DNA from: Sedimentisphaerales bacterium
GTDB taxonomy: Bacteria > Planctomycetota > Phycisphaerae > Sedimentisphaerales > SM23-30
Assembly: GCA_963666285.1 (NCBI GenBank)
Contig: OY762711.1
Direction: 5' to 3' (one strand)
Length of the DNA stretch: 64,000 bases
The notes below the pieces were generated by a model. It had not been told where the DNA came from, searched no databases, and saw only the letters and a program-made list of their open reading frames with translations. The first letter of the stretch is position 1. Every line of letters starts with the position of its first letter. Made by a program: the position numbers and the translations under genes. Positions 39,009-58,864 of this stretch are shown in pieces.

Positions 39009-39039
39009 TTTTATGGTGTATCTTTCAGCAGTCTGTTGG

Positions 39040-40247: not shown

Positions 40248-40270
40248 TTGTAGATGATTATAAGATTTTG

Positions 40271-41470
40271 TTAGTTATTGAATACTTCCGGCAGGTCCTG
40301 TTCGGAGCATTCTTCTACTGTCAGATCGCCATAAATGACATGCCAGTTATCAGAATTTTGCGGGTGCCACCAGAAGACAGGAGTTTCAGCTTCGCCGAGT
40401 TTTACACCTTTGCCATTGTAGTACCATTGTCCCTGCCCTTTGTACATTCGAATGAATACCAGTCCCTGGCCCCATTTGGTAGCGATTTCGACCTGCTGCT
40501 CATTTGACAGTTTTTTGTCTTTGAAGGCTTTTTCCATCCGGGTTTGAGCAAACTTGACCATATCTTCAAGTCCGACGCTGTCAGGGAAGAATCCGTCATT
40601 CATAATTTCCGAGGTTAGTCTCAGCATTTCGATGAAGTTTTCTTCTGTGTTGGCAGAGAAATCGATAGCCGTTTTCTGCTCGGTATAACCATCCGGTACT
40701 TCCATACTGAAAACAGATTCATCAATATCGACATTGAACTTGATATTATCACATGTAATAGTAGTATTGGCGTTTTGTTCTATGACCTTGACAGGCATTG
40801 ATGTAGCCGGTTCGATCCAGATTGTAATGGCATATTGCGGTCGGTCTTTTACGGTTGCTTTGTAGACATAATATTCAATGTTATTCTCAGTTTTGTAGCC
40901 AATATCTTCAACCTCGAAATAATCGCTATCGAGAAGTTTTTGCATCAGGTTTTGCATATGGACTAAATAATTCTGGATATTCCCAAGTCCGTCAAGTTTT
41001 ACATAAGTAACAGTTTTTTCTTGAGGAGATATGGTCATTAGCTTCATCTCATTCAGGTCAATTACCATCCTGGCACCTTGAATACCACGTACTTCTCTGA
41101 ATATTTTTTGGCCCATAATAGTATCATTGATGACGGTCTGGTTTTCACCTTCACCGAGTATGATTTCCATTACAGCATTTTTAGCGTTGAGCAACGGTTT
41201 AATAGCATCAGCGAGAGCGATAGAACTGCCGCCGTTTGAGAAAGTCAAAAATATTGAAAGAGCAATAAGTATCACAGCAGCAGCTGCAATTTTAGTAAAT
41301 TTATTATTCATGATTTTACTCCAGTTATTCAACTTGCCGGTTGCTTTGTTTTGGCAAGAGTCTAATTCATTTTTAAGGTTTTCCAGTATATCGCGGTCAA
41401 GTTCCGGGTTGGTCTCAACAACGACGTTTTTCAAGATATTTTCTATATTGTTGTTATCTGCAGGTCTCAT
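40271..41470 (-). CDS. Putative anti-sigma factor (cassette 1): short cytoplasmic domain, one TM, LolA-like domain
   Basis: ATGA overlap with sigma; KIAAAAVILIAL TM; IWIEPATSMPVKV and F..EVPDGY motifs. Confidence 0.8.
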   Translation of the reverse strand: MRPADNNNIENILKNVVVETNPELDRDILENLKNELDSCQNKATGKLNNWSKIMNNKFTKIAAAAVILIALSIFLTFSNGGSSIALADAIKPLLNAKNAVMEIILGEGENQTVINDTIMGQKIFREVRGIQGARMVIDLNEMKLMTISPQEKTVTYVKLDGLGNIQNYLVHMQNLMQKLLDSDYFEVEDIGYKTENNIEYYVYKATVKDRPQYAITIWIEPATSMPVKVIEQNANTTITCDNIKFNVDIDESVFSMEVPDGYTEQKTAIDFSANTEENFIEMLRLTSEIMNDGFFPDSVGLEDMVKFAQTRMEKAFKDKKLSNEQQVEIATKWGQGLVFIRMYKGQGQWYYNGKGVKLGEAETPVFWWHPQNSDNWHVIYGDLTVEECSEQDLPEVFNN

Positions 41471-42009
41471 GAAGTCACCTCACTTTCCATTAGCTTGCGT
41501 AACTTTTCCAGGCCATACTGGCATCGGCTCCGTACGGTTTTAGCCGACACCTTTTGCAGTTTGGCAATTTCTTTATATGTCATTTCTGCCTGAATATGTA
41601 GAACAACAGCTTCCCGCTGCTGGTATGGGATTTCAGCCATGGCCTGGCCTATCAGTTTCATTTCTTCGTTGATGATCAGCCATTTGTCAGGACTTTCTGA
41701 TATTTCCGGTTGGATGTCAGAATTATCCAGGTTAACTGTTGTCTTGTTACTGCTGATACGTAACATTGTTTTGGCCCGGTTGGCCGTACAGGTTGCCAGG
41801 AATGCTTTCAGGCTGCCGCCAGGTTTGTACGATTCAGGCTTTCGCACAAGTGTCAGGAAGACATCCTGTACAGTGTCTTCAGCGGCAGCAGTATTATTCA
41901 GCAGGCCGTAAGCTATTTTCAGCAGTAAATTTTTGTACCTGAGATAGATTATCTCCAGAGCCTGTTGGTTACCCATACGAAGCTGCCGGATAAGTACTTT
42001 ATCTTCCAT
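41467..42009 (-). CDS. ECF sigma-70 factor (cassette 1)
   Basis: AEDTVQDVF region 2; QREAVVLH...TYKEIA...TVRSR region 4. Confidence 0.92.
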   Translation of the reverse strand: MEDKVLIRQLRMGNQQALEIIYLRYKNLLLKIAYGLLNNTAAAEDTVQDVFLTLVRKPESYKPGGSLKAFLATCTANRAKTMLRISSNKTTVNLDNSDIQPEISESPDKWLIINEEMKLIGQAMAEIPYQQREAVVLHIQAEMTYKEIAKLQKVSAKTVRSRCQYGLEKLRKLMESEVTS

Positions 42010-42102
42010 TAGTTACCTCATATGATAGTTACTTAATGATCAATCATCATTAATATAACTACTTTAGTGTGTAAAAGGCCTTAAATAAAATATAAAAGTA
42101 AT

Positions 42103-42265: not shown

Positions 42266-42296
42266 AATGTCTTTATCCCGGATGCTCTAAAATATC

Positions 42297-42325
42297 TTGA
42301 CAAATTTGTAATTTTATTCGATACT
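42297..42325 (+). promoter_or_regulatory. Sigma70-type promoter for rex
   Basis: TTGACA-N17-GATACT. Confidence 0.55.
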
Positions 42326-42413
42326 ATGATATCGATATTGATATTGTTTTCGGTTTGAATAAGATTGTAACTGCATTATTTGCAGAATTTTATATAGATC
42401 AAAAGAGGTCACT

Positions 42414-43055: not shown

Positions 43056-43157
43056 GATAAAGCAGCAGAATAGGGTGATTTGCGTGTTTCCTCTAAGATA
43101 GAGTTTTCATAGCGACGCCTCATTAAGCCCTAAAGCAAATGCCAGTACCTATTATTT

Positions 43158-43916
43158 ATGATAAGACTTAACGATACAGAATGGTATTACAACCAGGGAA
43201 TTCAGCGTATTAGTGAAAAGAATTATTCAGGTGCTGTTGAATTGCTTGGAAAACTGATAGAACTTATGCCTGACAATTCTGAAGCTTATTACAGCCTTGG
43301 GGTGGCGTTGTCTAACCTGGGAGAGCATGAGCTGGCATATGAGAACTATCTAAAGGTTGTCGAACTTGACCCTGAATGCAGCGATGCATTATTTAACTGT
43401 GGTCGAACCCTGATAGACCTGGAGAAATTCTGGCAGGCGTGTAAGATGTTCGAAAAGTTTACCATGACCGAACCGGACTCGCCGGAAGGATTTTATTTAT
43501 GGGGCGATTGTTTATGTCGTCTTGGACTGTATCGGCAGGCTTGTGAGAAATATGAGTATTCAGTCGAGTTGGATTCCAGTTTGTTTTTTGTGTATGTCAA
43601 CTGGGGGCTGGCCTTGTTCAACCTGGCATTGGAAACGGAAGAAGGGCCGGAGCGTGCAGAGCTTTTGTACCAGGAGAAGCATAAGTATCAAATGGCTGAG
43701 GACATTGAGCCTGGAGCAGGGAGCTATAACCTGGCATGTGTATATTGCCTGGAGGGCGATCTGGTTTCATGCAGAAGCTGGTTGGAGAAGGCAAGCTTTA
43801 CCGGTCATCTGCCAAGCTGGGAGCATGCCATAAATGATGATGATCTTACACCGGTTAAGCATAAAAAGTGGTTTGTCAAATTAAACTGGCATGCAGAAAT
43901 GAATGAAAAGGAATAA
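43158..43916 (+). CDS. TPR protein
   Basis: Canonical TPR repeats; terminal SYNLACVY...WLEKA...DDDL motif. Confidence 0.85.
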   Translation: MIRLNDTEWYYNQGIQRISEKNYSGAVELLGKLIELMPDNSEAYYSLGVALSNLGEHELAYENYLKVVELDPECSDALFNCGRTLIDLEKFWQACKMFEKFTMTEPDSPEGFYLWGDCLCRLGLYRQACEKYEYSVELDSSLFFVYVNWGLALFNLALETEEGPERAELLYQEKHKYQMAEDIEPGAGSYNLACVYCLEGDLVSCRSWLEKASFTGHLPSWEHAINDDDLTPVKHKKWFVKLNWHAEMNEKE

Positions 43917-43918
43917 AT

Positions 43919-43945
43919 GAAAAAGCCCGCAGCGGATGCGGGCTT
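43919..43945 (-). terminator. Terminator (aaaagcccgc family), possibly bidirectional
   Basis: aagcccgca/tgcgggctt stem between convergent genes. Confidence 0.75.
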
Positions 43946-43952
43946 GAATGAG

Positions 43953-44993
43953 TTAATTAAGCATTTTAATTGTTGTCCGTGCGTTTCCTTTAAATGTTTT
44001 CTGTTTTTGCTGCTGCCACAATCTATCGTCAATATCAGCATCATAGGTGACAGAAGCTTTGATATCATAATTTTTGAAGAGCCCGGTTTTTAGATCCACT
44101 TCAATTTCGCCTTGGCCGGAAATGTTGTAATTATCGCTTACCCGTGCAATAGCATTACCATCGGTCGGGTCGTCACCAGCTCTAACAGACACCTTGGCAT
44201 TGAAGAAAGCCGAGTTGTTATTGATTTTAGCTAATTCCATTTCGGTTACTACGTAGCCATCCCTGGAGGTGCTGGCTCTTTCGGTAGTAATCCAGGTATT
44301 ACCGATTTTGAGCGGTTTGTCCGGATAGCGTCTGGGCAGAGAAGGAAACATGTTTTCCTTGCTTTCCCAGACGTCATCAAGCATGTTTTCCAGTTTACTT
44401 TCATAGTAGTCCATATCATCATCGGTATAGTCTTTTTTATCTACGCCTTTTTCATAGAGGATCGCATCAGCAAGGACATTACCATTCCATATCTCCCCGA
44501 TTTCACCGTCCGGCATGATCGCCAGCTTAATATAGTTATTGATCAGCCTGCGCCATCTTTTGAGATAATCCGGTGCTCTTTGATTCTGAGTTGAGTCCCA
44601 TTTGTATGTGCCATCGGCACCTTTACCTTTGATCCAATCCTGGGAGATTATACAAGCTCCGTCAGAAGGGTCTATTTCCAGACATTCGATTGCAAATTCA
44701 ATTTCATACCAGTAGCGAATACGGTTACTGGTAATCCTGCTTTTATTCTGCTCGGTCATATCCATTTCTTCGCGAATAGAAAATGTGTGACGTTCACCTG
44801 GCTCCATTTTGAATTTTATCACAGCAGTCGTCGGTCTGGCCGGAGCCGGTTTAACGACAGGCGGGGTGTTGGCTGCGGGATTGTCTGTTTGATTTTCGGT
44901 TGCGGAAGGTTCATCTTTACTGCATGACGGTATAGCGCAGAGAAATATAACGGCAAAAAACAGGAAGGTAACTTTGATAAGGTAATTTTTCAT
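43953..44993 (-). CDS. Lipoprotein, beta-rich (DUF6263-like, tentative)
   Basis: Likely start MKNYLIK at 44993; lipobox IPSC; Pro-rich linker; YPDKPLKIGNTW, VDLKTGL. Confidence 0.7.
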   Translation of the reverse strand: MKNYLIKVTFLFFAVIFLCAIPSCSKDEPSATENQTDNPAANTPPVVKPAPARPTTAVIKFKMEPGERHTFSIREEMDMTEQNKSRITSNRIRYWYEIEFAIECLEIDPSDGACIISQDWIKGKGADGTYKWDSTQNQRAPDYLKRWRRLINNYIKLAIMPDGEIGEIWNGNVLADAILYEKGVDKKDYTDDDMDYYESKLENMLDDVWESKENMFPSLPRRYPDKPLKIGNTWITTERASTSRDGYVVTEMELAKINNNSAFFNAKVSVRAGDDPTDGNAIARVSDNYNISGQGEIEVDLKTGLFKNYDIKASVTYDADIDDRLWQQQKQKTFKGNARTTIKMLN

Positions 44994-45196
44994 ATTTTTC
45001 CCTTTCATAAATTAACGGGTGAAATTGCATAACAGATTATTATTTTATGCTTTTAGAAAAGAGTTTCAATATGAAAATGAGTGAAAAGTCAATGCGTGTA
45101 CGTAAGTTTTTGTATTTGTGTAGTTTACGGCAGATTGTTGGTAAAAGAAAAGCCCGCAGGAGGTTACGGGCTTAAAAGAATTTAATTTGCAGATAG

Positions 45197-46498
45197 TTAT
45201 TTAGGTAAGTCTTCAAGAGCTATATCTTTGATGGTCAAATCTCCGAAAATAACCCGATATAATTTTGAATTATCTAATTTCCACCAATAGAGAGGTTTTT
45301 CGGCATCACCTAACATGACTTGTCCGGTGGAAACGTTCCAATTTTCTTGTAGAACAATTTTTTCTTCAACAAATGCAGCTGCCCACCTTGCCGTTTCTAA
45401 AAAATTAGTAGCATCATAGTATTCCTGTTTAGGATCTTTTCCCTTATAAAATTTCTTCATAATCATTTGCTTTATTATATTGGGATCCATTAGTTTGGTT
45501 ATATCTACCGGGAGAATTCCATCAGACATCTCAGCCCATAATTGTAACATATCAATTAATTCAGTTTCATTTGGCTCAGATGTAGAAAATGTCTGTTCAT
45601 GCAGCTCGTATCCGTCAGGAATAGATGTTGAAAATAACTCAGGTTCCAAATCAATATTCCATTCGAAGTCAGTCATAACTTGTTTGGTATATTCTGGAGT
45701 ACAGCTTCCAGATAACCTTCCGCTTACAGACTTAGATTCATTATAGCCAAAGTCTTTAGAATTAATACTTATGTTTTTGATTGGAAAATATTTTTTATTT
45801 GTAGGCGGTATTCGTTCTGATACTACTTTTATAGGCAGTTTAGTTTCCACGTTTATCCAGATTTTTGTATTAGAATACTGCAGCGGCTGTGTATCTTGAT
45901 AAATTTCTACTTCGATTTCATCTATTATCTCATAACCAATAAAGCTTATGTTTCCTTTTTCATGTCGTGAAGCAAGAAAATCTAATGAATTAAAAAGTTT
46001 AATGAAGGGTTGTGGGGCTCTTTTTGATCGATATGCAGTTTTACTATTAGTATTTAATTGGAGTTGGATTCCATTTTTAAAATCAAATATTTGAACATCA
46101 CCAGTATTAGAAAAAGCGTGTCGCTCCACTCCACCGGCATTTATCATGACTTCATTGGACCAGGTAAAATCATTAACTACAGTCTTGCAATGATAATGAA
46201 CGCTTTTTGCCTTTTTTATTTGCTCAACTACATCTGCCCAGGCGATAGTAGCACCATCGGGCGATACGCCGGAGCGATTGAAGGTAATCAGCAGGGCGAT
46301 GAGTATCACTGCCGCTGCGGCAAGTTTGGTTAATTTGTGTTTCATGATTGTTATTCCAATATTTACAGGCTGTTTGGCAGCCGTTTTAGTTTTGTTTGAT
46401 TGCTCCTGAGCCTGTAAAATAGCTTTTAAGCCATCTTCATGTTTGCGGCTGTCAGGAGTGACGTTTATATTTGATAATATTTTTTCTACATTATTCAT
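45197..46498 (-). CDS. Putative anti-sigma factor (cassette 2)
   Basis: TKLAAAAVILIAL...SPDGATIAWADV; IWINVETKLP; LFSTSIPDGY; C-terminal domain shared with cassette 1. Confidence 0.8.
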   Translation of the reverse strand: MNNVEKILSNINVTPDSRKHEDGLKAILQAQEQSNKTKTAAKQPVNIGITIMKHKLTKLAAAAVILIALLITFNRSGVSPDGATIAWADVVEQIKKAKSVHYHCKTVVNDFTWSNEVMINAGGVERHAFSNTGDVQIFDFKNGIQLQLNTNSKTAYRSKRAPQPFIKLFNSLDFLASRHEKGNISFIGYEIIDEIEVEIYQDTQPLQYSNTKIWINVETKLPIKVVSERIPPTNKKYFPIKNISINSKDFGYNESKSVSGRLSGSCTPEYTKQVMTDFEWNIDLEPELFSTSIPDGYELHEQTFSTSEPNETELIDMLQLWAEMSDGILPVDITKLMDPNIIKQMIMKKFYKGKDPKQEYYDATNFLETARWAAAFVEEKIVLQENWNVSTGQVMLGDAEKPLYWWKLDNSKLYRVIFGDLTIKDIALEDLPK

Positions 46499-46499
46499 A

Positions 46500-47036
46500 T
46501 TACACCTGCCTTTCTAACAGACAGCGAAGTTTGTCCAGTCCATAGCGGTACCTGCTTTGAACGGTTTTAATAGATACGTTTTGCTGTTTGGCGATCGCTT
46601 TGAATTTCATCTGGCCCCTGGTATGAAGAATAACCACTTCACGCTGCTCGAAAGGCAGCTTGTTCAGGGCCTTGTTAACCAGCTGCATTTCTTCGTTACA
46701 GATAGCTGAAGCTGACGGCGTTTCTGAGCAGCACGATATGTTTTCAGCACATTCCAGCCCAACTGCCTGCCGTTTATTCATTCTCAGGCGATCTTTGGCA
46801 CGGTTTGCGACGCATGTTGCCAGGTACCATTTCAAACTGCCTTCAAGCTTAAGTTTGTCAGCAGACTGGGCAAAAGAGACAAAGAAATCATGCACCATAT
46901 CTTCAGCGGTGTTAATATCATTAACCAGCCCCATAGCCAGGGTGAGCAGGTAGGCATGATATTTTTCGTATATCCGCTGCAAAGCGGCACTGTCGCCTCG
47001 CCTGAACTTGTATATCAGTAACCTGTCTTCGAGCAT
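46500..47036 (-). CDS. ECF sigma-70 factor (cassette 2)
   Basis: AEDMVHDFF; LPFEQREVV; TVQSRYRYGLDKL. Confidence 0.92.
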   Translation of the reverse strand: MLEDRLLIYKFRRGDSAALQRIYEKYHAYLLTLAMGLVNDINTAEDMVHDFFVSFAQSADKLKLEGSLKWYLATCVANRAKDRLRMNKRQAVGLECAENISCCSETPSASAICNEEMQLVNKALNKLPFEQREVVILHTRGQMKFKAIAKQQNVSIKTVQSRYRYGLDKLRCLLERQV

Positions 47037-47214
47037 CTAAAACCGTTCTTTATAAAGAGTTAGATTTTTTATCCAATTGGACCAACTATTGTCATAATAT
47101 ATCACGATTCGGCCTGGCTTTTTACTCTAAAAAAAAGAAATATTTATAAAAAAACCTGCAAGTGTGTAGCTTGCAGGCTTAGTGAACTAAAAATTATATG
47201 TCAGTATGCCGATT

Positions 47215-48516
47215 CTATTCCGATTGAACCGGGGCTAATGAGTTAACCAGGTCTTTCAGCATTTCGTCTGAGACCGGACGGTTAGCTGCCATTCCGATAA
47301 CCACCTCATCTGGCATAGTGATCATACGAGTCTGCCGTTGGTCGCTAAGCTCAAATTCAGCAAAATCCGGCATATCTTTGGAAAAACCTTCAAGGAAATA
47401 CTTAGCGTATTCTTTGCCGTTTGGATGAGTATAGACTTTTATTTCAGGGCCGGATTCCAATACCAGCTGCTGATTGAAAATCCAGATCATTCTGCCGGTA
47501 TCATAATAGTTTCCCTGGATAAGTAATATATTATTGTCATCAATTGTATTTAATGCCGTGATATAGCTTATAGCCCGGCTACCCAGGGGATCTATGGTCT
47601 GTACGGTCATGATATCGGTTACCCAGGGTAAGTTGCCAATCGTGTATGCTGTGTGATTTAAACCGGCCTGGATTTCATTAGCTGATATTTGTTTTGGCTC
47701 CACAGGTCGATAGTCATTTATTATTGTCTCTACCACATAGCCTTCAGGAACTTTGGTGCTGAAATCTTCCGGGTCGTATTCAAAATCAAATTCGAAATTA
47801 TCCATATAGATCATATTTTTCATTTTTGGATGTCTAAGTTCTATTTCGACAGGTAATTTAGTACCGGTATCTACCCAGACGGTGAAGTCATTATGTTCGT
47901 TTGGCTTGTGTCTGAAGCCGTAGAGATTTTTTCCGTCAACTTCTTTGGTTCCAAGCCTTTCGGTAGATTCCTGATCAAAGCGCTTAACCATATCTATAAT
48001 GTCTGGGTCTTTTTTGGGGCCGTAGCCGAGCATTTTGGTAACAACAGCTTTCTGTTCGTCCGGTTTCAACTCGACAAGTATGGCGTCTTCATTTTGCATG
48101 TCGATGATATGGATAGTACCGTCTTCGACTTCCTGGCGTCTAAGTGACAGATTGACATGGATCACCTCCATAGTTGGCAGATCCGTTCCGTTATCAACGA
48201 TAACTCTCTGTCTACATTTGTATTTTTCATAGTTATTCAGCTGCTTGACGACATCGGCCCAGGCGATAGTAGCACCATCGGGCGATACACCGTTATGGTT
48301 AAAGGTAATGATCAGAGCTATAAGAATTACCGCGGCGGCAGCTAGTTTTGTTATATTATTTTTCATGATATGTTTCCATTTATTTTCGGCCAAAAGCTCT
48401 TTGTTTCTTTTTTTCTGCAGTTGAATTGCATCGGAAAGGATCTCATCTTGCTTTTGGGCTCTAGGGTTTACATTAAAATTTGTTATTAAATCTGATATGT
48501 TATTAAAAGGCTTCAT
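47215..48516 (-). CDS. Putative anti-sigma factor (cassette 3)
   Basis: Same TM hinge; VWVDTGTKLP; FSTKVPEGY; distinct distal domain. Confidence 0.8.
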   Translation of the reverse strand: MKPFNNISDLITNFNVNPRAQKQDEILSDAIQLQKKRNKELLAENKWKHIMKNNITKLAAAAVILIALIITFNHNGVSPDGATIAWADVVKQLNNYEKYKCRQRVIVDNGTDLPTMEVIHVNLSLRRQEVEDGTIHIIDMQNEDAILVELKPDEQKAVVTKMLGYGPKKDPDIIDMVKRFDQESTERLGTKEVDGKNLYGFRHKPNEHNDFTVWVDTGTKLPVEIELRHPKMKNMIYMDNFEFDFEYDPEDFSTKVPEGYVVETIINDYRPVEPKQISANEIQAGLNHTAYTIGNLPWVTDIMTVQTIDPLGSRAISYITALNTIDDNNILLIQGNYYDTGRMIWIFNQQLVLESGPEIKVYTHPNGKEYAKYFLEGFSKDMPDFAEFELSDQRQTRMITMPDEVVIGMAANRPVSDEMLKDLVNSLAPVQSE

Positions 48517-49055
48517 TTGATCACCTCATTATTTAGTAGTGTTTTGAGCTTGTCGAGTCCGTATCGATATCGACTCTGGATAGTATTGATAGAGGTATCG
48601 GTAGATTTTGCTATCTGGGCGAAAGTCATACCTGCCAGCAGGTGCAGCGTTACCGCTTCTCTCTGCTCATAGGGCAGTTTAGCCAGTGCTTTATTGATAG
48701 CTATAGTCTGTTCCTGCTGCTGGGCCAGAAGTACCGGCTCCGGATATTCGGTTTCTATCGCACAGCTGCCTTCGAGAGCAGCCGGTTCCAGCTTTCTGCG
48801 TTTAAGCTTGTTTTTGGCGATATTTGCCACACAAACAGCAGAATATGCCTTAAAACTGCGGTTCAACTTGATTGAGTCAGCCGACTGGACCAGCAAGACA
48901 AAGAAATCATGCAGAGCATCTTCCGCCGCATGGGTATCATTGAGCAACGCTGTCGCCACCGAGGTCAGGTACACCTTATGTTTGGTGTAAATCCTTTCCA
49001 GGGCGATAGTTGAACCTCGCTTGAATCTCCATAACAATATTTTATCTTCCAGCAT
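48513..49055 (-). CDS. ECF sigma-70 factor (cassette 3)
   Basis: AEDALHDFF; LPYEQREAV; TIQSRYRYGLDKL. Confidence 0.92.
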   Translation of the reverse strand: MLEDKILLWRFKRGSTIALERIYTKHKVYLTSVATALLNDTHAAEDALHDFFVLLVQSADSIKLNRSFKAYSAVCVANIAKNKLKRRKLEPAALEGSCAIETEYPEPVLLAQQQEQTIAINKALAKLPYEQREAVTLHLLAGMTFAQIAKSTDTSINTIQSRYRYGLDKLKTLLNNEVIK

Positions 49056-49158
49056 TATTACCTCTATTTTTAACGTAAAGAATGATCATCCATCATTATA
49101 CATACAACTGAGCAGCTGGAATTAGTCTAAAATATTCTGATTTTCCCAATATTAATAG

Positions 49159-49190
49159 AAAAAGCCCGCAAGAGAGGAGTGCTGCGGGCT
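49159..49190 (-). terminator. Terminator of cassette 4 (near-identical to 51705-51734)
   Basis: aaaaagcccgcaagagaggagtgctgcgggc. Confidence 0.8.
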
Positions 49191-49266
49191 GGATAATTTA
49201 ACCGATTGTCAGTTCTAAATGGTACTTCGCATTTTGTTCCTGATTCATACGGTTAGTTTGAGTAAT

Positions 49267-51051
49267 TTAGTTCAACTTGTATTTAGGATATCGCCCTCGC
49301 CAGCTTGGCCCCTTAAATGATTTAATAGTTCTGAGATATCTAAAATCTTCTGTATCCATTTGATTATACGATTTGTAAATGCTGCTGTTAAACCCCTTAT
49401 GATTCAGCAATTGTGTTTGTGTTTTTTTAATGTCCGGCAGGAAGTTATTCCATCCGCCCGCATCGGCATTTTCTATTATCCAATCTACAGTTGATAACGC
49501 AGATTCGTAGTTGTCCAAATTCTGGTATAATTGAACCAAGTCATTTGCACATGCAAAATGCTGCCAGCATGGCGGGGTTTCATTATTGATTTTACCGACT
49601 AGTATATTAAACTGTTTGGTTTTTAGCTCTAACAGTTCTTTATTAAGCATAATGTTTTTCGTTCTTATGAAGTTCCCTTTATCATCAAGAGAGGTATACA
49701 CTGTTGGTTCCAGGGTTTGTATTGATTCTACTAATTCATCAATAATGTCAGCATTGTGTTGGTCTCTTTCGTATGCTATTTCACATAAGACTCTTGCCAT
49801 ATATCCATATTGATACGATTCATGTGACAATAAACCGCCAACCATCCAAAACTTATCTCTTAGCAGCTGCGCTATATATAACAGTTCAGTTTCAGGCAGA
49901 CTTTCATAGTCAATAGCTAACTGGATTTGTTCTAGAATATCTTGCCTGACAGTATGGTATTTTGGCCATTGTTGTTGTATTCTGTCTTGATCCAATAATA
50001 ACTCTTCTAATTTGTCTGTATTATTACTCGGCATAAATTCACGGATGTCGGTATTTGCGAGTGTTTCAATTTTTTCGCTGGCACTATTATCATAAATTAA
50101 ATATGTAAGTCCGATTTCGTCAAGATATGACAAATCTAATGGTTCAACTTTTTGGGGTTTTGCCAGATTTTTCTTGACCGAAGACTTTTTAATCAAATGG
50201 TAATTATCAGGAATTACCGGCGTAAAATCTTTTGCTGTAAATACTGGATTCCATTGAAATTCACACATAACGTAATTGACAACTGGACCATTATTAATCT
50301 TGTAGTTTGTTTCTACTAAAAAAGGCAATTCTGTTTTAACGTCAATCCATAGAGTTGATTCATAGTAATCATACCTGTTTTTTGAATTATTATTTGCCGA
50401 CGATGATAAATGTATGCCTTCAACTACATTTCCATCAATAACCTTTCGGCCAATATTCAAATGTTCACTTTTGCTGTAATTGTCAATTATGTATCTTGGA
50501 GCAAACCAGTCCATACTATCACTATCCCAATCCTCCTGCCGATAATGATTCATTAAGTGACTGATAACATAGAATTTATTTGTTTGCCTAAGAAAATATG
50601 ACTGTCCTGATAGATTATCATCATGATAACTTTCAGTCTTCTTTCCAAACTCTTTGCTATAATACTTTTCTTTTATGTATTTCAGTTTAATTTCTGCACT
50701 TTCCGGCTTTAGTCTTTCATGTGTTTCTGTGCGATACTCTTTGTAAGAATAAGATTCAATATTACCTATTTTTGTAAAGACATCTGCCCAGGCGATAGTA
50801 GCACCATCCGGTGATACGCCATTATGGTTAAAGGTAATGATCAGGGCGATAAGAATAACCGCGGCGGCGGCCATTTTGGTAAGGTTTAGTTTCATGAGCT
50901 TACTCCATTTTTTGTCGCCGGTCGACTGGATGGGAGTATTTAGTATAGCCTGTTTTGCGTTTTCGATATTAGCCCTGGCTTTTTGGTCGCTGATCTCAAA
51001 ATTACCGATCTCATTTAAACAATCTATGATATATTTTTCATCTTTATGCAC
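49267..51051 (-). CDS. Putative anti-sigma factor (cassette 4)
   Basis: Same TM hinge; LWIDVKTELP; FTPVIPDNY; extra helical C-terminal domain; likely GTG start overlapping the sigma end. Confidence 0.8.
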   Translation of the reverse strand: MHKDEKYIIDCLNEIGNFEISDQKARANIENAKQAILNTPIQSTGDKKWSKLMKLNLTKMAAAAVILIALIITFNHNGVSPDGATIAWADVFTKIGNIESYSYKEYRTETHERLKPESAEIKLKYIKEKYYSKEFGKKTESYHDDNLSGQSYFLRQTNKFYVISHLMNHYRQEDWDSDSMDWFAPRYIIDNYSKSEHLNIGRKVIDGNVVEGIHLSSSANNNSKNRYDYYESTLWIDVKTELPFLVETNYKINNGPVVNYVMCEFQWNPVFTAKDFTPVIPDNYHLIKKSSVKKNLAKPQKVEPLDLSYLDEIGLTYLIYDNSASEKIETLANTDIREFMPSNNTDKLEELLLDQDRIQQQWPKYHTVRQDILEQIQLAIDYESLPETELLYIAQLLRDKFWMVGGLLSHESYQYGYMARVLCEIAYERDQHNADIIDELVESIQTLEPTVYTSLDDKGNFIRTKNIMLNKELLELKTKQFNILVGKINNETPPCWQHFACANDLVQLYQNLDNYESALSTVDWIIENADAGGWNNFLPDIKKTQTQLLNHKGFNSSIYKSYNQMDTEDFRYLRTIKSFKGPSWRGRYPKYKLN

Positions 51052-51580
51052 TTTTGCTACCCTCCTTTTTTATTGGGGTAGAGTTTATTTTTGATACGAT
51101 ATCACGCAGTTTTGCGATAGCTTTTGAACATGTCGAGCGCAAATGGCTTGCTTTTTTGTCCAGTCGAACAGCGATCTGGTCATAGGTTAACTGTTCTACA
51201 TAATGTAAGTAAATAACGTTTCGGTCCAACTCTTTCAAACCAGATATTGAGTCAAGAACATGTTCGAGCTGCTCATTTTTGATTATTTTGTCAATAACCG
51301 ATGAGCTTTGGTCGCATATTTCAGCGGCATTATCCAAAGTCACAGTCTGGATTTTTCGTTTTCTACGCCAGTCAAACGCGAGGTTTGCTGCCGAACGCCA
51401 GGCATAGGCATACGGGTTATCCGCTTTTTCTATGCCTTTGGTACTTACCAGTTTGACAAATAAATCCTGCAGCAGATCGCCCGCGGTATGTTCGCAGCGA
51501 GTAATCCGCCCGAGCATACGGTGCAGGGATGAGCCATGCTCATCTAACAGGTTCATAACTAATTGCCGGCGTTTTTCCAA
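51044..51580 (-). CDS. ECF sigma-70 factor (cassette 4)
   Basis: TTG start with AAGGA SD; AGDLLQDLF, NLAFDWRR, LTYDQIA. Confidence 0.9.
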   Translation of the reverse strand: MEKRRQLVMNLLDEHGSSLHRMLGRITRCEHTAGDLLQDLFVKLVSTKGIEKADNPYAYAWRSAANLAFDWRRKRKIQTVTLDNAAEICDQSSSVIDKIIKNEQLEHVLDSISGLKELDRNVIYLHYVEQLTYDQIAVRLDKKASHLRSTCSKAIAKLRDIVSKINSTPIKKEGSKSA

Positions 51581-51704
51581 GAAATTTCCTTCTTATTCGA
51601 GGTTTGTATCCTCATATGTCTGTTTTCGTTGGCCTTCATATAGACTGACGCATCTAATATACATTGCGCACCTGAAATTTACACTTATTTATTCGTTTAA
51701 ATAT

Positions 51705-51736
51705 AAAAAGCCCGCAAGAGGGAGTGCTGCGGGCCT
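51705..51736 (-). terminator. Terminator of cassette 5
   Basis: aaaaagcccgcaagagggagtgctgcgggc. Confidence 0.8.
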
Positions 51737-51757
51737 AAAAATTGGTTCTATTATATC

Positions 51758-51920
51758 AGGCAACTTCTGAAAATTCATTTTGAGCGACAAGTTTTTCTTT
51801 TGCCTGCTGACATGCGTCACATAAAACAGTGAATATAGCACAATATGCACGGTTTCACGTTCCTTGGCAGCAAATAAAATCTTAAACTATCGAATCAGGA
51901 GCAATTTCCAGAGGTCTCCT
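51758..51920 (+). mobile_element. Diverged full-length MITE-like element between the anti-sigma stop codon and its terminator
   Basis: aggcaacttctgaaaattcattttgagcga...gaatatagcacaatatgcac...gcaatttccagaggtctcct; same length as the other full copies. Confidence 0.8.
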
Positions 51921-53725
51921 TATTGTTTATTTTGAATAATATATTGCGGGTCGAACAGAGTATCGTCAATCTCTGGATTTTCGATTATGGTTATGAACTT
52001 GTCCGGTTTGAGATCATAGTTATAATCACAGTCGTAAATCATATCGTTAAATTGTTTTTCGGCTATTATAGTTGCATACCATTGGCCAGTGCTGGTATTT
52101 TTATATTTTTTCATTTCAGTAATGATAAAATATTGATCACTGTAACCATTATTATCCGTAACATCTTTAAGCCAGTCTTTATCCTGCTGCCATTGTCCAT
52201 CTTTTTTGTATTCTAGTACTTTTCGATGGCAAATATAATCTTTTGATGGATCAAGGTAGTATTTACTTCGTAATGGATGGTATATTATTTTTCCTTTGTA
52301 GCTATTTCCATTTTCAAGGCTTTGTATGCAAATGAAGTTATTATTAAGGCTATAACTATCTTCTATAACAGACAATTTTATTCTATGATCGCTGTCTTCT
52401 AATATTTGGTCTGGCCAGTATTGCATAACAATGTCAATCCATGGTTCGTGTTTATAGCCCGGTAGTTTAGAAAGTTCTTTTTTATGACTTAATATCCAGT
52501 TATTGTTTGTAAGGTCTTGTAAGTTTGATTTATTTTCCAGTTCGTAACTATATACTTCATCGAATATTTCTATGTTATCAGTGTAATATCTAAATTTACC
52601 GATTTCTTTAGCTGTTTTGACAATATAATTGTAATCATACAGTGTGTTTTCTCTAAAAAGAATGTCGTCAATATTTTCAGGAGTCGGTTCTGGTGTATAA
52701 ATATCATCTATACGAACTTTTTTACCGGAATGGTAGATCATGTAATATCTATATGTCTTTTCTTTTATTATTGTTACTCTTTTATCTGGGAATGCATCTC
52801 TGGCATTACGATATTTATCTAGTTTTTCCAGTAGCTGATCGTTAGTGTTATCTATAATATTTGCATCAATGGGAACTCCGAGGTTGTATATGTCATTTGG
52901 CCCGTTTGAGGGATAGTCAAATGCTATTGTGATATCGGTTACTGAGTCTGAGTTGTCTGCATATATTGCCAGTTCGCTAAGAAGATTTATGGTTTGATTT
53001 ATCTTAATTTTTATAATAGCTTTTTTGCATATTGTTGCTGCGTTTTCTTTGCGGATGGCAGTATGTGTTATTTCGACAAATTTCTGCCCGTTAATTGTTG
53101 ATTCAGTGTTTTTAGTTTCTATGTCGAAATTAATAGGTTCCAGCATTGCAACAATCATTTCTACAAAAGTCTCGGTAAATTCTGCTGGATTTCCCGGCAT
53201 TGCTGCAAAGGCGTTACTGGTAGAGATATAATTGCTAACTGTTATAGTATTGCTGTCAGGAGCGTATTGGTATTTGATGTGATCTTTTTTGAATGAGACG
53301 CTATTGTCATATTTTGTTTCTGATTCAATATTTAGTGGCTTGGAATACCAGAATTCTTTATTTTCGTTTATGTCTGGTGATGAAGTGCGGCAGTGAATCC
53401 ACATGGCATTAGACATGTTGTCAATGGATTTCATTACATCGGCCCAGGCAATCGTCGCGCCATCGGGTGATGCTCCATTATAGCTGAAAGTCAGTATAAG
53501 TGCGATTAGTATTACCGCCGCGGCAGCGAGTTTGAAAAGGTTATTCTTCATGATAAATCTCCATTTGGCCGCAGGGATGCTGCGGTTTTTGGTTTTCGAT
53601 TGAAACCGGCAAACAGAATCCGGGTGGGCCTGCTGCCATTTGTCAAAATCGAACTTCAGCTCGTTACGGCCGAATGTACTGGAGATGAGTTCGTCAAAAT
53701 TGTCATGTCTATCGGAAGGATTCAT
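51920..53725 (-). CDS. Putative anti-sigma factor (cassette 5)
   Basis: FDFDKWQQAHP cytoplasmic domain; KLAAAAVILIAL...SPDGATIAWADV; AT-rich large extracytoplasmic region. Confidence 0.8.
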   Translation of the reverse strand: MNPSDRHDNFDELISSTFGRNELKFDFDKWQQAHPDSVCRFQSKTKNRSIPAAKWRFIMKNNLFKLAAAAVILIALILTFSYNGASPDGATIAWADVMKSIDNMSNAMWIHCRTSSPDINENKEFWYSKPLNIESETKYDNSVSFKKDHIKYQYAPDSNTITVSNYISTSNAFAAMPGNPAEFTETFVEMIVAMLEPINFDIETKNTESTINGQKFVEITHTAIRKENAATICKKAIIKIKINQTINLLSELAIYADNSDSVTDITIAFDYPSNGPNDIYNLGVPIDANIIDNTNDQLLEKLDKYRNARDAFPDKRVTIIKEKTYRYYMIYHSGKKVRIDDIYTPEPTPENIDDILFRENTLYDYNYIVKTAKEIGKFRYYTDNIEIFDEVYSYELENKSNLQDLTNNNWILSHKKELSKLPGYKHEPWIDIVMQYWPDQILEDSDHRIKLSVIEDSYSLNNNFICIQSLENGNSYKGKIIYHPLRSKYYLDPSKDYICHRKVLEYKKDGQWQQDKDWLKDVTDNNGYSDQYFIITEMKKYKNTSTGQWYATIIAEKQFNDMIYDCDYNYDLKPDKFITIIENPEIDDTLFDPQYIIQNKQ

Positions 53726-54258
53726 TTTTCACCCTCCTTATCTATGGTTTTCTTCAGTGTGTTTTCGAGTTTCTTTCGAATTCTGCATAATTTTGCATTT
53801 ACAGCAGCCGGTGTCATTCCGGCGATTTCAGCGATCTGGTCGTGAGATAGATTCGCAAAGTATCTGAGCATAACCAGTTCGCGAGATTTCTCCGGCAGTT
53901 TCAATATTGCCTTGTGCAGATCGTCATGCAGGGCAGTATCTTTGCTTTCTGGTGCTGCTAACTGCCCGGCATCTTCGATTGCTGCTGTTCGTTTTTGCTG
54001 CCGGGCTATGTTTATCGCGGTATTGCGGCATATAGTCTTGAGCCAGCCGGTGAATTTCTCCGGTTTTCGCAGGTCGGGCAGCTTCTCCAGGGCACGGGCG
54101 TACGCTTCCTGCACGGTATCTTCTGCCAGATGCCGGTCATGCAAGATGCAGTAAGCAATTGCCGCCATTGCCGGGTAATAACGCTCACACAGCATGCCGA
54201 AGCTTGCCAGATCACCTTTTATCGCCGATTCTACTTGTTTTACCTGTTCGAGCTCTAT
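53722..54258 (-). CDS. ECF sigma-70 factor (cassette 5), probable non-canonical ATA start
   Basis: Frame is open upstream of ATG 54195: IELEQVKQVESAIKGDLASFGMLCERY; ATA at 54258 with GGAG 7 nt upstream gives 178 aa, like its neighbours. Confidence 0.85.
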   Translation of the reverse strand: MELEQVKQVESAIKGDLASFGMLCERYYPAMAAIAYCILHDRHLAEDTVQEAYARALEKLPDLRKPEKFTGWLKTICRNTAINIARQQKRTAAIEDAGQLAAPESKDTALHDDLHKAILKLPEKSRELVMLRYFANLSHDQIAEIAGMTPAAVNAKLCRIRKKLENTLKKTIDKEGEK

Positions 54259-54412
54259 TCGATTGCTCCGTTTGTCAATATTATTGTTTCTACCATATAG
54301 ACAAGTGATGCTGTAAATATGATCGCAAAAAATATATATAAATCACGAAAAAGCAATTTTAGTTATAAGTGTCTTAGTTTCAAGTATTAATAGTAGAAGG
54401 TTTCATGTGTAT

Positions 54413-54442
54413 TTGACATATTGGTTTAAATGTACTTAGAAT
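54413..54442 (+). promoter_or_regulatory. Sigma70-type promoter
   Basis: TTGACA-N18-TAGAAT about 50 nt upstream of 54492. Confidence 0.55.
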
Positions 54443-54491
54443 AACTAATGTAGTCTGTATTTGCATACTATTATTTGAAAGTGGGGCTATT

Positions 54492-55562
54492 ATGAAGTGT
54501 GTTTGTAGATTATTTGTCGGTCTTATACTGGTATTTGGGAACCTGGATGCAGGTCAGGTCTTTTTGAATGACGGTGATCACCACTTGGTTGATGATGATC
54601 GGTATGATGGTGATGATGTATTTCTGGATGACGGTGTTTCTGTATATCCAGGTACTCATCTTGAACTGGAATCTCCAGGTGTAATAGGCGGGTTTGTTGT
54701 TGGTTATAATAACAGCAGGATAACTATTACAAGTGGCGGGCTAAGCGGAGTTTCAGCAAAAGGAAATTGTAAGGCGGTTATTAATGATGGGATAGTTGCA
54801 TTGGCAGCTCACGTTGATGATTCTGCAGAATTAAGGATTAACGGTGGAACAATTGGTGGAATGAGTGGAGAAGGTGTTGAAGCCTGGAATAATGGCTATG
54901 CCGACATTCATGGTGGATCACTTCATGGTCTGTTGCGAACATGGGGTGATGGATTTATCGAACTGCATGGAGCTTTTAGTGTTGATGGAAATGTTCTTTC
55001 GAATTACGAAAGTTTACGAAATTACGGTACATTAGTGGCAACTGCTGATGGGGAGTGGCAAACCGGCATTGTTACCGGCAGGCTTGCAGATGGTACGATA
55101 ATTGAAAGCGAATACTTTATAATGGTGTTCAATTATTGGGGGCCAACGTCAAATGGTGATATTGTTGTATATATAGAGCCGCTAATAAGCAGTGTTGTTC
55201 CCGATGGAGGAGAGGTATTTGTTGCCGGAGATCAGGCTGAGATCAAGTGGTACTGTAAGGCTGGAATTGAGACGGTCAAATTGGAATATTCTGCAGACTT
55301 TGGCCAAACGTGGTTTGATATTGCATCAGTTCCAGCGTCAGATATGTCATATTTCTGGACAATTCCTCAAATTAACTCTCAATTTTGTCTCATAAGAATA
55401 TCTGATTTTGAAGTTCCATTTATAAGCTCAGTAAGTGGCGATTCTTTTACAATATATATATGTCCGCTGGATTCTGATTTGACAGGTGATTGTAAGGTAA
55501 ATATGCAGGATCTGGCAGTATTTGTTAGTGAATGGCTAATTGATGCCAATCCGTTTCAATAG
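54492..55562 (+). CDS. Secreted protein: Gly-rich beta-repeat region, Ig-like domain, dockerin-like C-terminus
   Basis: Signal peptide; repeated I.GG.I/L units; PDGGEVF..G....IKW...LEYS.D.G.TW; DLTGDCKVNMQDLA...WL. Confidence 0.75.
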   Translation: MKCVCRLFVGLILVFGNLDAGQVFLNDGDHHLVDDDRYDGDDVFLDDGVSVYPGTHLELESPGVIGGFVVGYNNSRITITSGGLSGVSAKGNCKAVINDGIVALAAHVDDSAELRINGGTIGGMSGEGVEAWNNGYADIHGGSLHGLLRTWGDGFIELHGAFSVDGNVLSNYESLRNYGTLVATADGEWQTGIVTGRLADGTIIESEYFIMVFNYWGPTSNGDIVVYIEPLISSVVPDGGEVFVAGDQAEIKWYCKAGIETVKLEYSADFGQTWFDIASVPASDMSYFWTIPQINSQFCLIRISDFEVPFISSVSGDSFTIYICPLDSDLTGDCKVNMQDLAVFVSEWLIDANPFQ

Positions 55563-55576
55563 CGGATTTTGCACAT

Positions 55577-55610
55577 AAAAAAAGCCCGGCAGAGTTACCT
55601 ACCGGGCTTT
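55577..55610. terminator. Bidirectional terminator
   Basis: aaagcccgg/ccgggcttt stem between convergent genes. Confidence 0.8.
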
Positions 55611-55633
55611 GAGATTATGTTATATGATGGCTG

Positions 55634-58864
<3,231 letters not shown>

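Follow-up and report, generated by a model that had tools for sequence, protein, structure and literature searches.

Exchange of C-terminal domains at a conserved hinge of tandem ECF anti-sigma genes in a Sedimentisphaerales bacterium, and a probable internal start for a second, exported protein

The window analysed here is a 64,000-nucleotide stretch of contig OY762711.1 from a Sedimentisphaerales bacterium. It contains five cassettes (c1–c5), each consisting of an ECF sigma gene and a coupled anti-sigma gene (Table 1). All five sigma factors have sigma-70 regions 2 and 4 only, in approximately 180 aa. The RpoE equivalog TIGR02939 scored about 50 bits against a cut-off of 236 where it was listed (c1 and c3). 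Across the wider set of hinge cassettes the sigmas formed 13 clusters at 40% identity and represent many groups; in the window, the c4 sigma is approximately 24% identical to those of c3 and c5. The coupled gene at +1 encodes a cytoplasmic domain, small and helical, and a single membrane helix. The five anti-sigma proteins share one order of parts: a putative sigma-binding domain of approximately 50 aa, a hinge with the membrane segment, and predicted periplasmic domains of the LolA/RseB fold. This was one continuous frame in all five genes, and a separate RseB gene at +2 was absent. All eight hinge genes in the source genome stand after a sigma gene. The N-terminal part is coding: in 67 of 69 genes its in-frame start codon is coupled to the stop of the sigma gene, and third codon positions vary most in this upstream part (403/301/230). 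No Pfam anti-sigma domain matched the five window proteins, and zf-HC2 was found in 2 of 96 relatives.

Table 1. Positions of the cassettes, hinge elements and hairpins in the window
Feature	Position	Strand	Details
c1 ECF sigma factor	41467..42009	-	Sigma70_r2 + r4_2; TIGR02937 above cut-off
c1 anti-sigma, 399 aa	40271..41470	-	C-terminus LolA/RseB-like, profile E 3e-28
c1 putative internal start	GGAG 41319-41322, ATG 41309-41311	-	sequence
c2 ECF sigma factor	46500..47036	-	Sigma70_r2 + r4_2; TIGR02937
c2 anti-sigma, 433 aa	45197..46498	-	orthologue P0024, 93.8%
c2 anti-sigma parts	sigma-binding 46346-46498, hinge 46229-46345, C-terminus 45197-46228	-	
c2 putative internal start region	46343..46357	-	GGAA 46354-46357 (-12..-9), ATG 46343-46345
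c2/c3 conversion tract, 32 nt	46236..46267	.	exactly equal to 48257-48288
c3 ECF sigma factor	48513..49055	-	Sigma70_r2 + r4_2; TIGR02937
c3 anti-sigma, 433 aa	47215..48516	-	AlphaFold model pLDDT 88.7
c3 hinge	48250..48377	-	GGAA 48374-48377, ATG 48364-48366; putative function
c4 ECF sigma factor	51044..51580	-	Sigma70_r2 + r4_2; TIGR02937; ORF from first TTG
c4 anti-sigma, 594 aa	49267..51051	-	hinge + C-terminus recently common to sister genome
c4 hinge	50779..50906	-	GGAG 50903-50906, ATG 50893-50895, predicted cut after 50785
c5 ECF sigma factor	53722..54195	-	ORF from first ATG; true start may be further upstream
c5 anti-sigma, 601 aa, chimera	51920..53725	-	segment identities to P0003/P0002/P0018
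c5 hinge	53435..53562	-	GGAG 53559-53562, ATG 53549-53551, predicted cut after 53441
Terminator-like hairpin 3′ of c2	45150..45173	-	consensus match only
Terminator-like hairpin 3′ of c3	47152..47180	-	consensus match only
Hairpin 3′ of c4	49160..49191	-	sequence
Hairpin 3′ of c5	51705..51736	-	sequence

The modelled complex of the c3 sigma factor with residues 1–58 of its anti-sigma protein scored 0.78 (best of three controls 0.00), with contacts agreeing in at least 83% and a partner pLDDT of at least 72. The mark for this score was reached by 116 of 157 solved pairs and 2 of 215 mismatched pairs; the pass of c3 may mirror its likeness to complexes that are already solved. The model supports binding of the N-terminal domain to its sigma in c3 only. 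Judged by modelled architecture and folds, the full-length proteins are putative anti-sigma factors. The c3 model comprised helices at residues 7–50, a membrane helix at 54–74, a linker, a LolA fold at 82–266 and a second domain to residue 432. All Foldseek hits at ranks 1–10 were RseB (best E 4.8e-13), and the periplasmic part matched RseB/MucB. The structural comparison with VIA RseB gave Z 8.1 and rmsd 13.7 (254 residues aligned across 81–431), and that with LolA 4mxt gave Z 12.7 and rmsd 4.8 (175 aligned). The RseB/LolA match starts at the residues right after A-W-A. The modelled c5 C-terminus consists of two LolA/LolB-type domains and is 42% identical to P0018. Among 96 relatives, MucB_RseB was found in 6 and DUF2092 in 30; 54 of 69 C-termini matched the C-terminal profile, and those of c5–c8 did not.

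An earlier note on this DNA had described a block of near-identical nucleotides in the hinge, and recomputation returned the same values: 38/40 for 46231–46270 against both 48252–48291 and 50781–50820, and 80/88 for 48252–48339 against 50781–50868. The copy at 53437 matched at 61–67/88. These repeats exceed chance in the genome (BLASTN E 2e-31 to 3e-17). The drop in similarity past WADV was also reproduced, with 9–15/15 in the hinge of c2, c3 and c4 and 4–7/15 from the second 15-nt window after it. The genes had been called otherwise unalignable, which proved wrong for c1–c4: they align at 26–28% over 273–449 aa (E 1e-19 to 8e-35 for c1/c2, c1/c3, c2/c3, c2/c4 and c3/c4). Only in c5 does the alignment to the other copies end at the hinge. 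The DNA 3′ of the hinge in c2, c4 and c5 is AT-rich, as had been noticed, with GC contents of 0.336, 0.341 and 0.329 against 0.471, 0.436 and 0.496 in their sigma genes. These C-terminal values are among the lowest 2–3% of 2059 long ORFs.

A GGAG/GGAA-N7-ATG element, some 35 nt ahead of the AAAAVI block, opens the conserved unit, and the hinge reads as a translation-start region followed by a signal peptide and processing sites. In a set of 77 hinge genes drawn from 38 genomes, 76 had the ATG. A GGAG, GAGG or AGGA at −15 to −5 was found in 69 of the 77, giving a Shine-Dalgarno sequence 7 nt before the in-frame ATG; 300 synonymous recodings gave 23.0 ± 3.9 (maximum 39). The 77 genes were the best scorers or array members from 804 profile matches, and the conservation of the internal start is overstated because the profile contains the Met. 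All counts include kin, so relatives are not independent; with one gene per genome the signal was found in 36 of 38, against 11.6 expected. Such a Shine-Dalgarno sequence preceded 5.6% of 726 other Met codons. Arg at −4/−3 was encoded by AGA/AGG in 62 of 64 cases versus 36% elsewhere. Genes without Trp at −4 carried the signal in 21 of 24 cases (4.6 expected, maximum 12 in 2000 recodings). Outside the order it was found at 6 of 7 loci, in six different amino-acid contexts. In controls from the source genome it occurred in 0 of 37 FecR-like genes and 0 of 10 other anti-sigma genes. At the internal ATG the mRNA is A/T-rich and unstructured, folding energy dropping to −1.7 kcal/mol and GC to 27%, and the second codon is AAA in 56 of 77 genes. 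Two relatives have stand-alone genes (G280 and G145) that start at the element as their sole start, preceded neither by an open N-terminal domain nor by a sigma gene; such genes are rare, with no clear case at 31 sites. These data indicate that the in-frame start and its ribosome-binding site are conserved more strongly than coding alone requires. The hinge is probably the 5′ end of a second, exported protein inside the gene, as judged from sequence signals.

In c3 the hinge order is a basic n-region, AAAA plus a hydrophobic helix, a c-region and A-W-A, with a predicted cut after 48256. The A-x-A site immediately precedes the first LolA-fold helix, where the mature protein would begin. A-x-A sites were counted by regular expression; A-W-A was present in 27 of 77 genes only, and 9 of 77 lacked a match to the relaxed pattern. 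The c-region is long, the commonest predicted cut lying 37 residues past the Met. The c1 hinge is shorter than the other copies and ends ALA|DA. The source genome carries genes for signal peptidase I and for M50. Together, these motifs suggest translation from the internal ATG and cleavage of the signal peptide.

It is also conceivable, though we think it unlikely, that only the long form is made, the family having arisen once when a small anti-sigma domain was fused in frame with an rseB-like gene. The internal start would then be an unused relic kept through recombination, or GGAG would slow the ribosome ahead of the membrane helix; swapping and conversion would be unchanged. Consistent with this, at least six hinge genes (G208, G098, L062, L083, L092 and L104) lack the ATG or have it in another place, and some hinge genes without the ATG still keep GGAG. 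Weak GGAA sites stand in c2, c3 and c6; those of c2 and c3 were not counted, so 2 of 5 window copies fail the motif test, and the c2 GGAA lies one base further out in another codon frame (G-I in place of W-R/K). No internal Met was found in c9 and c10, two related LolA-type anti-sigma genes of the source genome, and homogenisation can carry neutral sequence. However, the signal is kept across codon frames, spacings and amino-acid contexts, and it also occurs in other orders and classes with different hinge DNA. The initiation distance of the ATG, the AAA second codon and the structure minimum fit initiation, and the two stand-alone genes have no other start.

Part of the hinge identity arose by gene conversion. 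Identical synonymous codons numbered 23/34 in c3/c4 (p 2e-4 to 5e-4), 19/31 in c2/c4 (p 0.002–0.003) and 15/31 in c2/c3 (p 0.07–0.10). They were at expectation for c5 against c2–c4 (10/28, 11/31 and 11/30) and for every c1 pair. With 27 own-genome pairs tested, c3/c4 alone clearly survives correction. Part of its value of 0.68 may be a family-wide bias, because hinge codons also exceed expectation between genomes (0.43 versus 0.31–0.35; 95th percentile 0.63, 99th 0.71). The sister genome has a 35-nt tract (50801–50835 in the window) exactly common to its c3 and c4, which differs from the 32-nt tract found here; the 32-nt tract predicts the contig ends observed in run X1. The proposed DNA-level conservation and homogenisation of the hinge therefore hold for c2–c4, whose hinges are being homogenised and are not conserved purely at protein level. 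In c1 and c5 the match is at protein level only, and gene conversion is not the main reason that the hinge is kept.

C-terminal domains are exchanged at the hinge. The c5 N-terminus is 79–81% identical to those of P0003 and P0002, whose hinges are 27–32% and C-termini 23–24% identical to c5; close relatives thus combine this N-terminus with another C-terminus. The replacement joint (51674→53549) ends on the internal ATG, and the similarity of c5 to the sister genome stops at 53549. P0012 differs from c4 at 7/52 N-terminal, 0/39 hinge and 5/503 C-terminal residues, and the DNA of the c4 hinge and C-terminus is at least 96% identical to the sister genome, versus 82–91% in the flanks. Both the N-terminal and the C-terminal side are exchanged, and orthologous cassettes do not always keep their C-terminus. 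C-termini of the c5 and c3 types were found behind other N-termini; on a quick sigma tree the 9 genes with the c3 type required 8 changes. In a set of 64 genes (32 genomes), C-terminal identity was below 30% in 25 of the 32 pairs whose sigmas were at least 60% identical, and sigma identity was below 32% in 26 of the 43 pairs whose C-termini were at least 60% identical. The Mantel test showed independent assortment of sigma and C-terminus (r 0.03, p 0.22) and gave r 0.56 (p 0.001) for sigma and N-terminus. In 43 pairs, C-termini were 70–92% identical behind sigmas under 35%.

We regard it as very improbable that the cassettes are old duplicates that diverged, with no exchange, everywhere except in a membrane segment fitting shared proteases (signal peptidase, RseP and ClpXP), the DNA identity being a consequence of amino-acid identity and codon bias. 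The c1 and c5 hinges do lack a synonymous excess, the motif is order-wide (215 of 301 genomes), and RseP/ClpXP are known to use AA motifs in the helix as signals (PMC10328401). Nevertheless, this is contradicted by the chimeras in close relatives, the 43 pairs with C-termini 70–92% identical and the differing exact tracts; orthologous hinges also change as fast as their C-termini (5/39 versus 17/343; 4/39 versus 28/344). There is equally little chance that GGAG...ATGAAAAG...ATAACAAAA is a recombinase target for programmed, shufflon- or integron-like exchange: a 32-nt version of the element is strikingly conserved in 80 of 301 genomes, rare codons included (reversed control 0), and one junction lies exactly on the ATG, but the window's own copies do not match that pattern, every copy lies within an intact gene and in direct orientation, 71 neighbouring ORFs gave no match to a recombinase or integrase family (at least 150 aa, 22 loci, E 1e-5; an unlinked enzyme is possible), and crossovers map to differing places in and around the hinge. 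None of the 15 joints listed, out of 22, was hinge-to-hinge, in contigs that drop rare variants; the DNA of relatives B and C was seen only via the comparison that gave these joints. The hinge is thus a graft point where C-termini are exchanged, but not a dedicated crossover site as had been supposed.

We consider it fairly probable that one gene encodes both a membrane anti-sigma factor and an exported RseB-like form, and that a conserved socket permits homologous domain exchange. The upstream start would give the long form, with a cytoplasmic sigma-binding domain, one AAAA-motif membrane helix and LolA/RseB-fold periplasmic domains. Translation from the internal start would yield a short form that lacks the sigma-binding domain; after export and cleavage it would be a free lipid-binding protein of the RseB type. 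This protein could act as a partner or shield of the long form, in the way of RseB/MucB towards RseA/MucA, or soak up the inducing ligand. By analogy with RsiV, RsiP and RsgI, the long form would free the sigma through a cut at or near the same site, followed by RseP and ClpXP. Homologous recombination in the socket of approximately 130 bp could join any sigma and N-terminus to any periplasmic module, as seen in the chimeras, since the socket is the only DNA common to unrelated cassettes; it would leave short conversion tracts between neighbours, as observed for c2–c4. Once detached, a module would form a full gene, start codon included.

More tentatively, we speculate that such two-in-one genes occur planctomycete-wide, combining an RseA-like sensor with an RseB-like partner or effector in a ratio that depends on how strong the internal site is, with a universal socket and combinatorial arrays. 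If so, an exported domain behind the socket (LolA-type, discoidin or FecR-like) would be both a sensor for the upstream sigma and a secreted protein, and a captured domain could later return to life as a stand-alone gene. Arrays in tandem would then act as combinatorial input-output libraries, rewired by recombination at the socket: a plug-and-play ECF toolkit made by nature.

A sigma factor and its anti-sigma are commonly viewed as a pair that co-evolves and whose input is fixed. The cassettes resemble E. coli sigmaE-RseA-RseB and P. aeruginosa AlgU-MucA-MucB (ECF02) in the ECF sigma and the single-helix anti-sigma, and the c3 model matches both periplasmic domains of RseB/MucB, the LolA fold and the small second domain. 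MucB senses lipids in its cavity (PMC7400510). In ECF02, RseB is a separate gene at +2 (PMC7826278), whereas in the cassettes the RseB-like part follows the anti-sigma domain in the same reading frame and has its own ribosome site, ATG and predicted signal peptide; the cassette sigmas belong to many groups and the modules are exchanged. In the Firmicutes proteins RsiV (DUF4179) and RsiP, signal peptidase cuts at site 1, and an A-x-A-like site and then an amphipathic helix come after the membrane helix, as in the cassettes; the portions of these reports consulted describe no internal start (PMC6066255, PMC8844934). DUF4179 was below the cut-off in c4 (14.7 bits versus 30.1, E 0.042) and matched 1 of 96 relatives at E 0.0047. 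The SigI/RsgI pairs of Clostridium thermocellum are likewise paralogous, with a conserved N-terminal part, variable sensors and an AA motif for RseP/ClpXP (PMC10328401). RsgI conserves its whole N-terminal half and self-cleaves at Asn-Pro, whereas the cassettes vary on either side of a 40-residue socket that is common to unrelated sigma groups.

In-frame internal starts that give a shorter form with another location or role are described for CheA-L/S, CcmM58/35 and SpaO-L/S, and no anti-sigma example appears in the accessible text of that source (PMC13515050). Unlike these, the second start here would make a signal peptide of what is otherwise a membrane anchor, family-wide; no description of such a start was found in the literature searched, where most subscription papers fell outside scope. 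If used, it would let a single gene encode an RseA/RseB-like pair in a new manner, one that annotation misses. The analogy to polymorphic toxins applies in part: in CdiA/Rhs, variable C-termini are also swapped by homologous recombination at a conserved motif (PMC7662968), and orphan modules usually lack a start site, whereas the hinge reads as one. It fails in that the cassettes have no toxin/immunity genes, the source genome has no downstream orphans or other hinge fragments, and the N-terminal side varies too. The movement of input modules between unrelated sigma groups at a defined socket explains signalling diversification in these bacteria, and the socket is a natural junction for building ECF sensors.

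The hairpins 3′ of c4 and c5 are near-identical to each other.

The anti-sigma genes of the five ECF sigma/anti-sigma cassettes in the window (c1–c5) share a hinge of approximately 130 bp (40 residues), which comprises a GGAG/GGAA-N7-ATG element, a signal peptide-like helix, and an A-x-A site. It separates a predicted sigma-binding N-terminus of approximately 50 aa from a periplasmic C-terminus. We conclude that the hinge is a real feature. The identities quoted for the hinge copies in an earlier note were exact on recheck, and the similarity is lost straight past WADV, as stated there. In c2, c4, and c5, the C-terminal portions described as AT-rich fall within the most A+T-rich 2–3% of long ORFs. 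The genes are not otherwise unalignable, as had been claimed: c1–c4 align at 26–28% over 273–449 residues. Conservation of the hinge at the DNA level was borne out for c2–c4 only, and the synonymous codons of c5 and c1 are at expectation. The identical synonymous hinge codons were 23 of 34 for c3/c4, 19 of 31 for c2/c4, and 15 of 31 for c2/c3. The c3/c4 value stands out, given that the sigma factors of these two cassettes share only 24.6% identity.

Coordinates of the sigma/anti-sigma cassettes
Feature	Position	Strand
c1 sigma/anti-sigma cassette	40271-42009	minus
c2–c5, run of four sigma/anti-sigma cassettes	45197-54195	minus

Of the 301 genomes of the order Sedimentisphaerales, 215 had matches to the hinge profile, the matches often lying in tandem arrays. 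One relative carries the label Planctomycetota. The own genome (G000) has three further hinge genes outside the window (c6–c8), each behind a sigma gene; orphan hinge fragments, which the earlier note proposed to look for, were absent from it. Genes c6 and c8 form a second tandem pair (C1:5533886-5541348, L016). The former has a c3-like sigma (59%), a mixed membrane segment, and the SPDGA half of the hinge. The latter encodes 1458 aa, with blocks like the C-termini of c6 and c5 and with carboxypeptidase-regulatory and thioredoxin-like domains.

A statistical start signal is buried in the hinge. The count covered 77 hinge genes from 38 genomes, a biased set made up of the best scorers and array members among 804 matches; in 76 of them, the Met position of the 'IMK' motif is an ATG. 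GGAG, GAGG, or AGGA was found at −15 to −5 in 69 of the 77 genes, mostly as GGAG at −11 to −8, versus 23.0 ± 3.9 expected under synonymous recoding. At the 726 other Met codons of the same genes, a Shine-Dalgarno motif occurred at 5.6%. The Arg near the start uses AGA/AGG in 62 of 64 cases. The residues over the site vary (W-R, W-S, R-R, G-R, G-D, R-S, G-G) and the purines are kept; genes without Trp kept the site in 21 of 24 cases, versus 4.6 expected. Outside the order, the site was present at six of seven loci, in a different context each time. The weakest folding and lowest G+C were at the internal ATG. None of the 37 FecR-like and none of the 10 other anti-sigma genes in the own genome carry the start signal, and the exact SPDGATIAWADV coding pattern had no match in JGI metagenomes. 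The sequence after the internal ATG has a net charge of +1 to +3, followed by a hydrophobic helix starting with AAAA. An A-x-A-like site is commonest 37 residues downstream (A-W-A in 27/77, no match in 9/77).

Stand-alone genes starting at the hinge element, without an N-terminal domain or sigma, were found in two genomes; 31 further sites gave no clear case. These genes (L055:6469-7197 in G280 and L082 in G145) resemble each other in their upstream non-coding DNA and encode a discoidin-like domain; tandem anti-sigma-like versions occur at loci L083 and L092. Elsewhere, the discoidin-like passenger is a lipoprotein in 18 of 25 loci (by eye) or stands behind a full N-terminus and hinge. At locus L062:13490-13957 (G038), inside an array, a sigma gene is followed by a short 156-aa anti-sigma with ACG in place of the hinge ATG and next by an exported protein encoded on its own, an arrangement split like RseA/RseB. 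At L126 (G297:C40), the hinge is followed by a domain that looks by eye like the FecR type and not the LolA fold.

We consider it probable that the hinge is kept for start and export functions and that recombination exploits it as the only DNA in common. Against an internal start, c2 and c3 have GGAA only, and the ATG is lost or displaced in at least six hinge genes. A buried site that is a relic and does not initiate would fit these exceptions, and we regard this as unlikely. If the internal start is used, a single gene would give two products, a long form (the membrane anti-sigma) and a short form from the internal ATG. The short form would be exported and cleaved. The long form may free the sigma via site-1 cleavage, RseP, and ClpXP; the models for this are RsiV and RsiP (PMC6066255; PMC8844934), together with the AA degron of RsgI (PMC10328401). 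The ligand may be lipid-like, as the analogy with MucB suggests (PMC7400510). The own genome encodes signal peptidase I and M50 proteases. The best match to signal peptidase I is preceded, at a distance of approximately 650 nt, by an ECF sigma gene (C1:3971731-3973475).

The c3 model (pLDDT 88.7) has helices at residues 7–50, a membrane helix at 54–74, a flexible linker, a LolA fold at 82–266, and a second domain. In Foldseek, E. coli RseB took all ranks 1–10 (best E 4.8e-13). VIA-align gave Z 12.7 and rmsd 4.8 with LolA (175 aligned), and Z 8.1 and rmsd 13.7 with RseB (254 aligned, residues 81–431). A PDB sequence search with the family profile reached RseB at E 0.27 only. The model of the c5 C-terminus, built from 8 sequences only (pLDDT 70.7), has two LolA/LolB-type domains, the first beginning at the Asp after A-W-A. 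Of 69 C-termini with 150 aa or more, 54 match the c3 LolA-domain profile; those of c5–c8 do not. In 67 of 69 genes, the N-terminus is a coding segment with its start coupled to the stop codon of the sigma gene. Sigma c3 modelled together with residues 1–58 scored 0.78, and the best of three controls 0.00. Of the solved pairs, 116 of 157 pass the mark used, as do 2 of the 215 mismatched pairs, and likeness to solved complexes can yield a pass. In the c3 complex, at least 83% of the contacts agree, with a partner pLDDT of at least 72; they involve residues 7–41 and not Met51.

Chimeras in close relatives show that C-termini are exchanged at the hinge, as the earlier note had proposed. The relatives' proteins P0003 and P0002 keep the N-terminus of c5 (79–81%) and differ from it in the membrane segment (27–32%) and the C-terminus (23–24%). 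In the contigs of sequencing runs X4/X5, the c5 similarity ends at 53549, the last base of the internal ATG, and a stretch of 1874 bases gives way to 1753 different ones. Both runs are from one sample, and their listed substitutions agree with P0016. The depth holes of X4/X5 over the c2 and c3 C-termini were read as domain loss; this was rejected, the domains being kept in P0016 and P0024. In P0018, an N-terminus of the c3 type (57%) precedes a C-terminus of the c5 type (42%), and in P0019, the c3 C-terminus (72%) follows a different N-terminus (28%). Genome G002 has a c4-type sigma and N-terminus with a c5-type C-terminus (79 residues available only). Relative C has a c2-type sigma, for which the c2 N-terminus as query retrieved no partner within 238–758 aa.

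The sister genome differs from c4 at 0 of 39 hinge and 5 of 503 C-terminal residues, with DNA identity of at least 96% versus 82–91% in the flanks. Judged from these identities, the c4 hinge and C-terminus are evidently a recent transfer, with a tract beginning approximately 18 codons upstream of the hinge. The cassettes c2, c3, and c4 retain their C-termini in the sister genome; therefore, one of four positions was swapped there.

In a set of 64 full-length genes drawn from 32 genomes, sigma distances followed the N-terminus (Mantel r 0.56, p 0.001) and not the C-terminus (r 0.03, p 0.22). The C-termini were <30% identical in 25 of 32 sigma pairs of at least 60% identity, and the sigmas <32% identical in 26 of 43 C-terminus pairs of at least 60%, the pairs being non-independent. 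On a quick sigma tree, the nine c3-type C-termini required 8 changes, of which starred branches force 6; this is no better than shuffled (7.6). C-termini 70–92% identical stand behind unrelated sigmas in 43 pairs, so faster C-terminus evolution is not the explanation. Such pairs also make protein constraint alone a very improbable account of the hinge. A site-specific recombination system is equally improbable, since the swap junctions lie at varied positions within and near the hinge and none of 71 neighbouring ORFs match recombinase families.

Homogenisation of the hinge by gene conversion, also proposed earlier, is local: it holds among c2–c4, and c5 and c1 show the expected values. The longest exact hinge tracts were 32 nt for c2/c3, 29 nt for c2/c4, and 23 nt for c3/c4, and at most 14 nt with c5 and 9 nt with c1. 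The c2/c3 tract predicts all four contig ends of run X1 exactly, assuming words of 31. The same arithmetic for X4/X5 gives a 35-nt tract common to c3 and c4, at which the own genome differs at 4 positions; it predicts the contig start seen at 48277. Conversion tracts thus appear to differ between sister genomes, judging from contig ends rather than read sequence, which matches the prediction of conversion. Of the synonymous hinge codons, a fraction of 0.505 is shared within genomes between genes that have unrelated flanks (58 pairs, own genome excluded) and 0.429 between different genomes; the expectation for both is 0.31–0.35. As different-genome sharing is also above expectation, a family-wide bias or between-genome exchange adds to the signal.

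The hinge genes would work like sigmaE-RseA-RseB, as if folded into one gene. In ECF02, unlike in the hinge genes, RseB is a separate +2 gene (PMC7826278). The hinge genes are not of the DUF4179 anti-sigma type, nor are they a toxin system (PMC7662968). Internal-start proteoforms are known, and the parts of a review covered contain no anti-sigma example (PMC13515050). The portions of PMC7406223 and PMC7826278 covered hold nothing on such shuffling. The supplement of the latter, as far as covered, has no DUF2092, LolA, MucB, Phycisphaer, or Sedimentisphaer; its remaining parts may cover these ECF groups. We found no description of two-start swapping anti-sigma genes in the literature searched, and the ECF groups themselves may be described.

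An intergenic, hairpin-forming, MITE-like repeat of 164 nt occurs at 40039-40202, 42104-42267, and 51759-51922, and in part at 37768. The main contig has 58 copies of at least 120 nt (73–94% identical) and the three small contigs none. The repeat flanks c1 and follows c5; its dispersal rules it out as a cassette boundary. The hairpin after each gene is a candidate second homology arm; three of the five matches to its pattern are located in the window. Rfam had no match in 39000-56000, and sigma-70 promoter matches were at chance level (45 vs 47.7). The small contigs C2–C4 are nearly equal in size (65.6, 65.6, and 66.6 kb), and no match to other contigs exceeded 2 kb at 90% among those listed. 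The genome has 63 sigma matches overall; at least 37 ECF sigma genes are followed by FecR-like anti-sigma genes (approximately 550–590 aa) of one design, spread over the genome, for example from 63955 onward (C1:895955-897616). Directly downstream of the array, a DUF6263 lipoprotein-like gene (43953-45008) is a possible target of a sigma factor. The sister-genome contig skips the gene at 54492-55562 (joint 54258->55577), indicating that this neighbour of the array was recently gained or lost.
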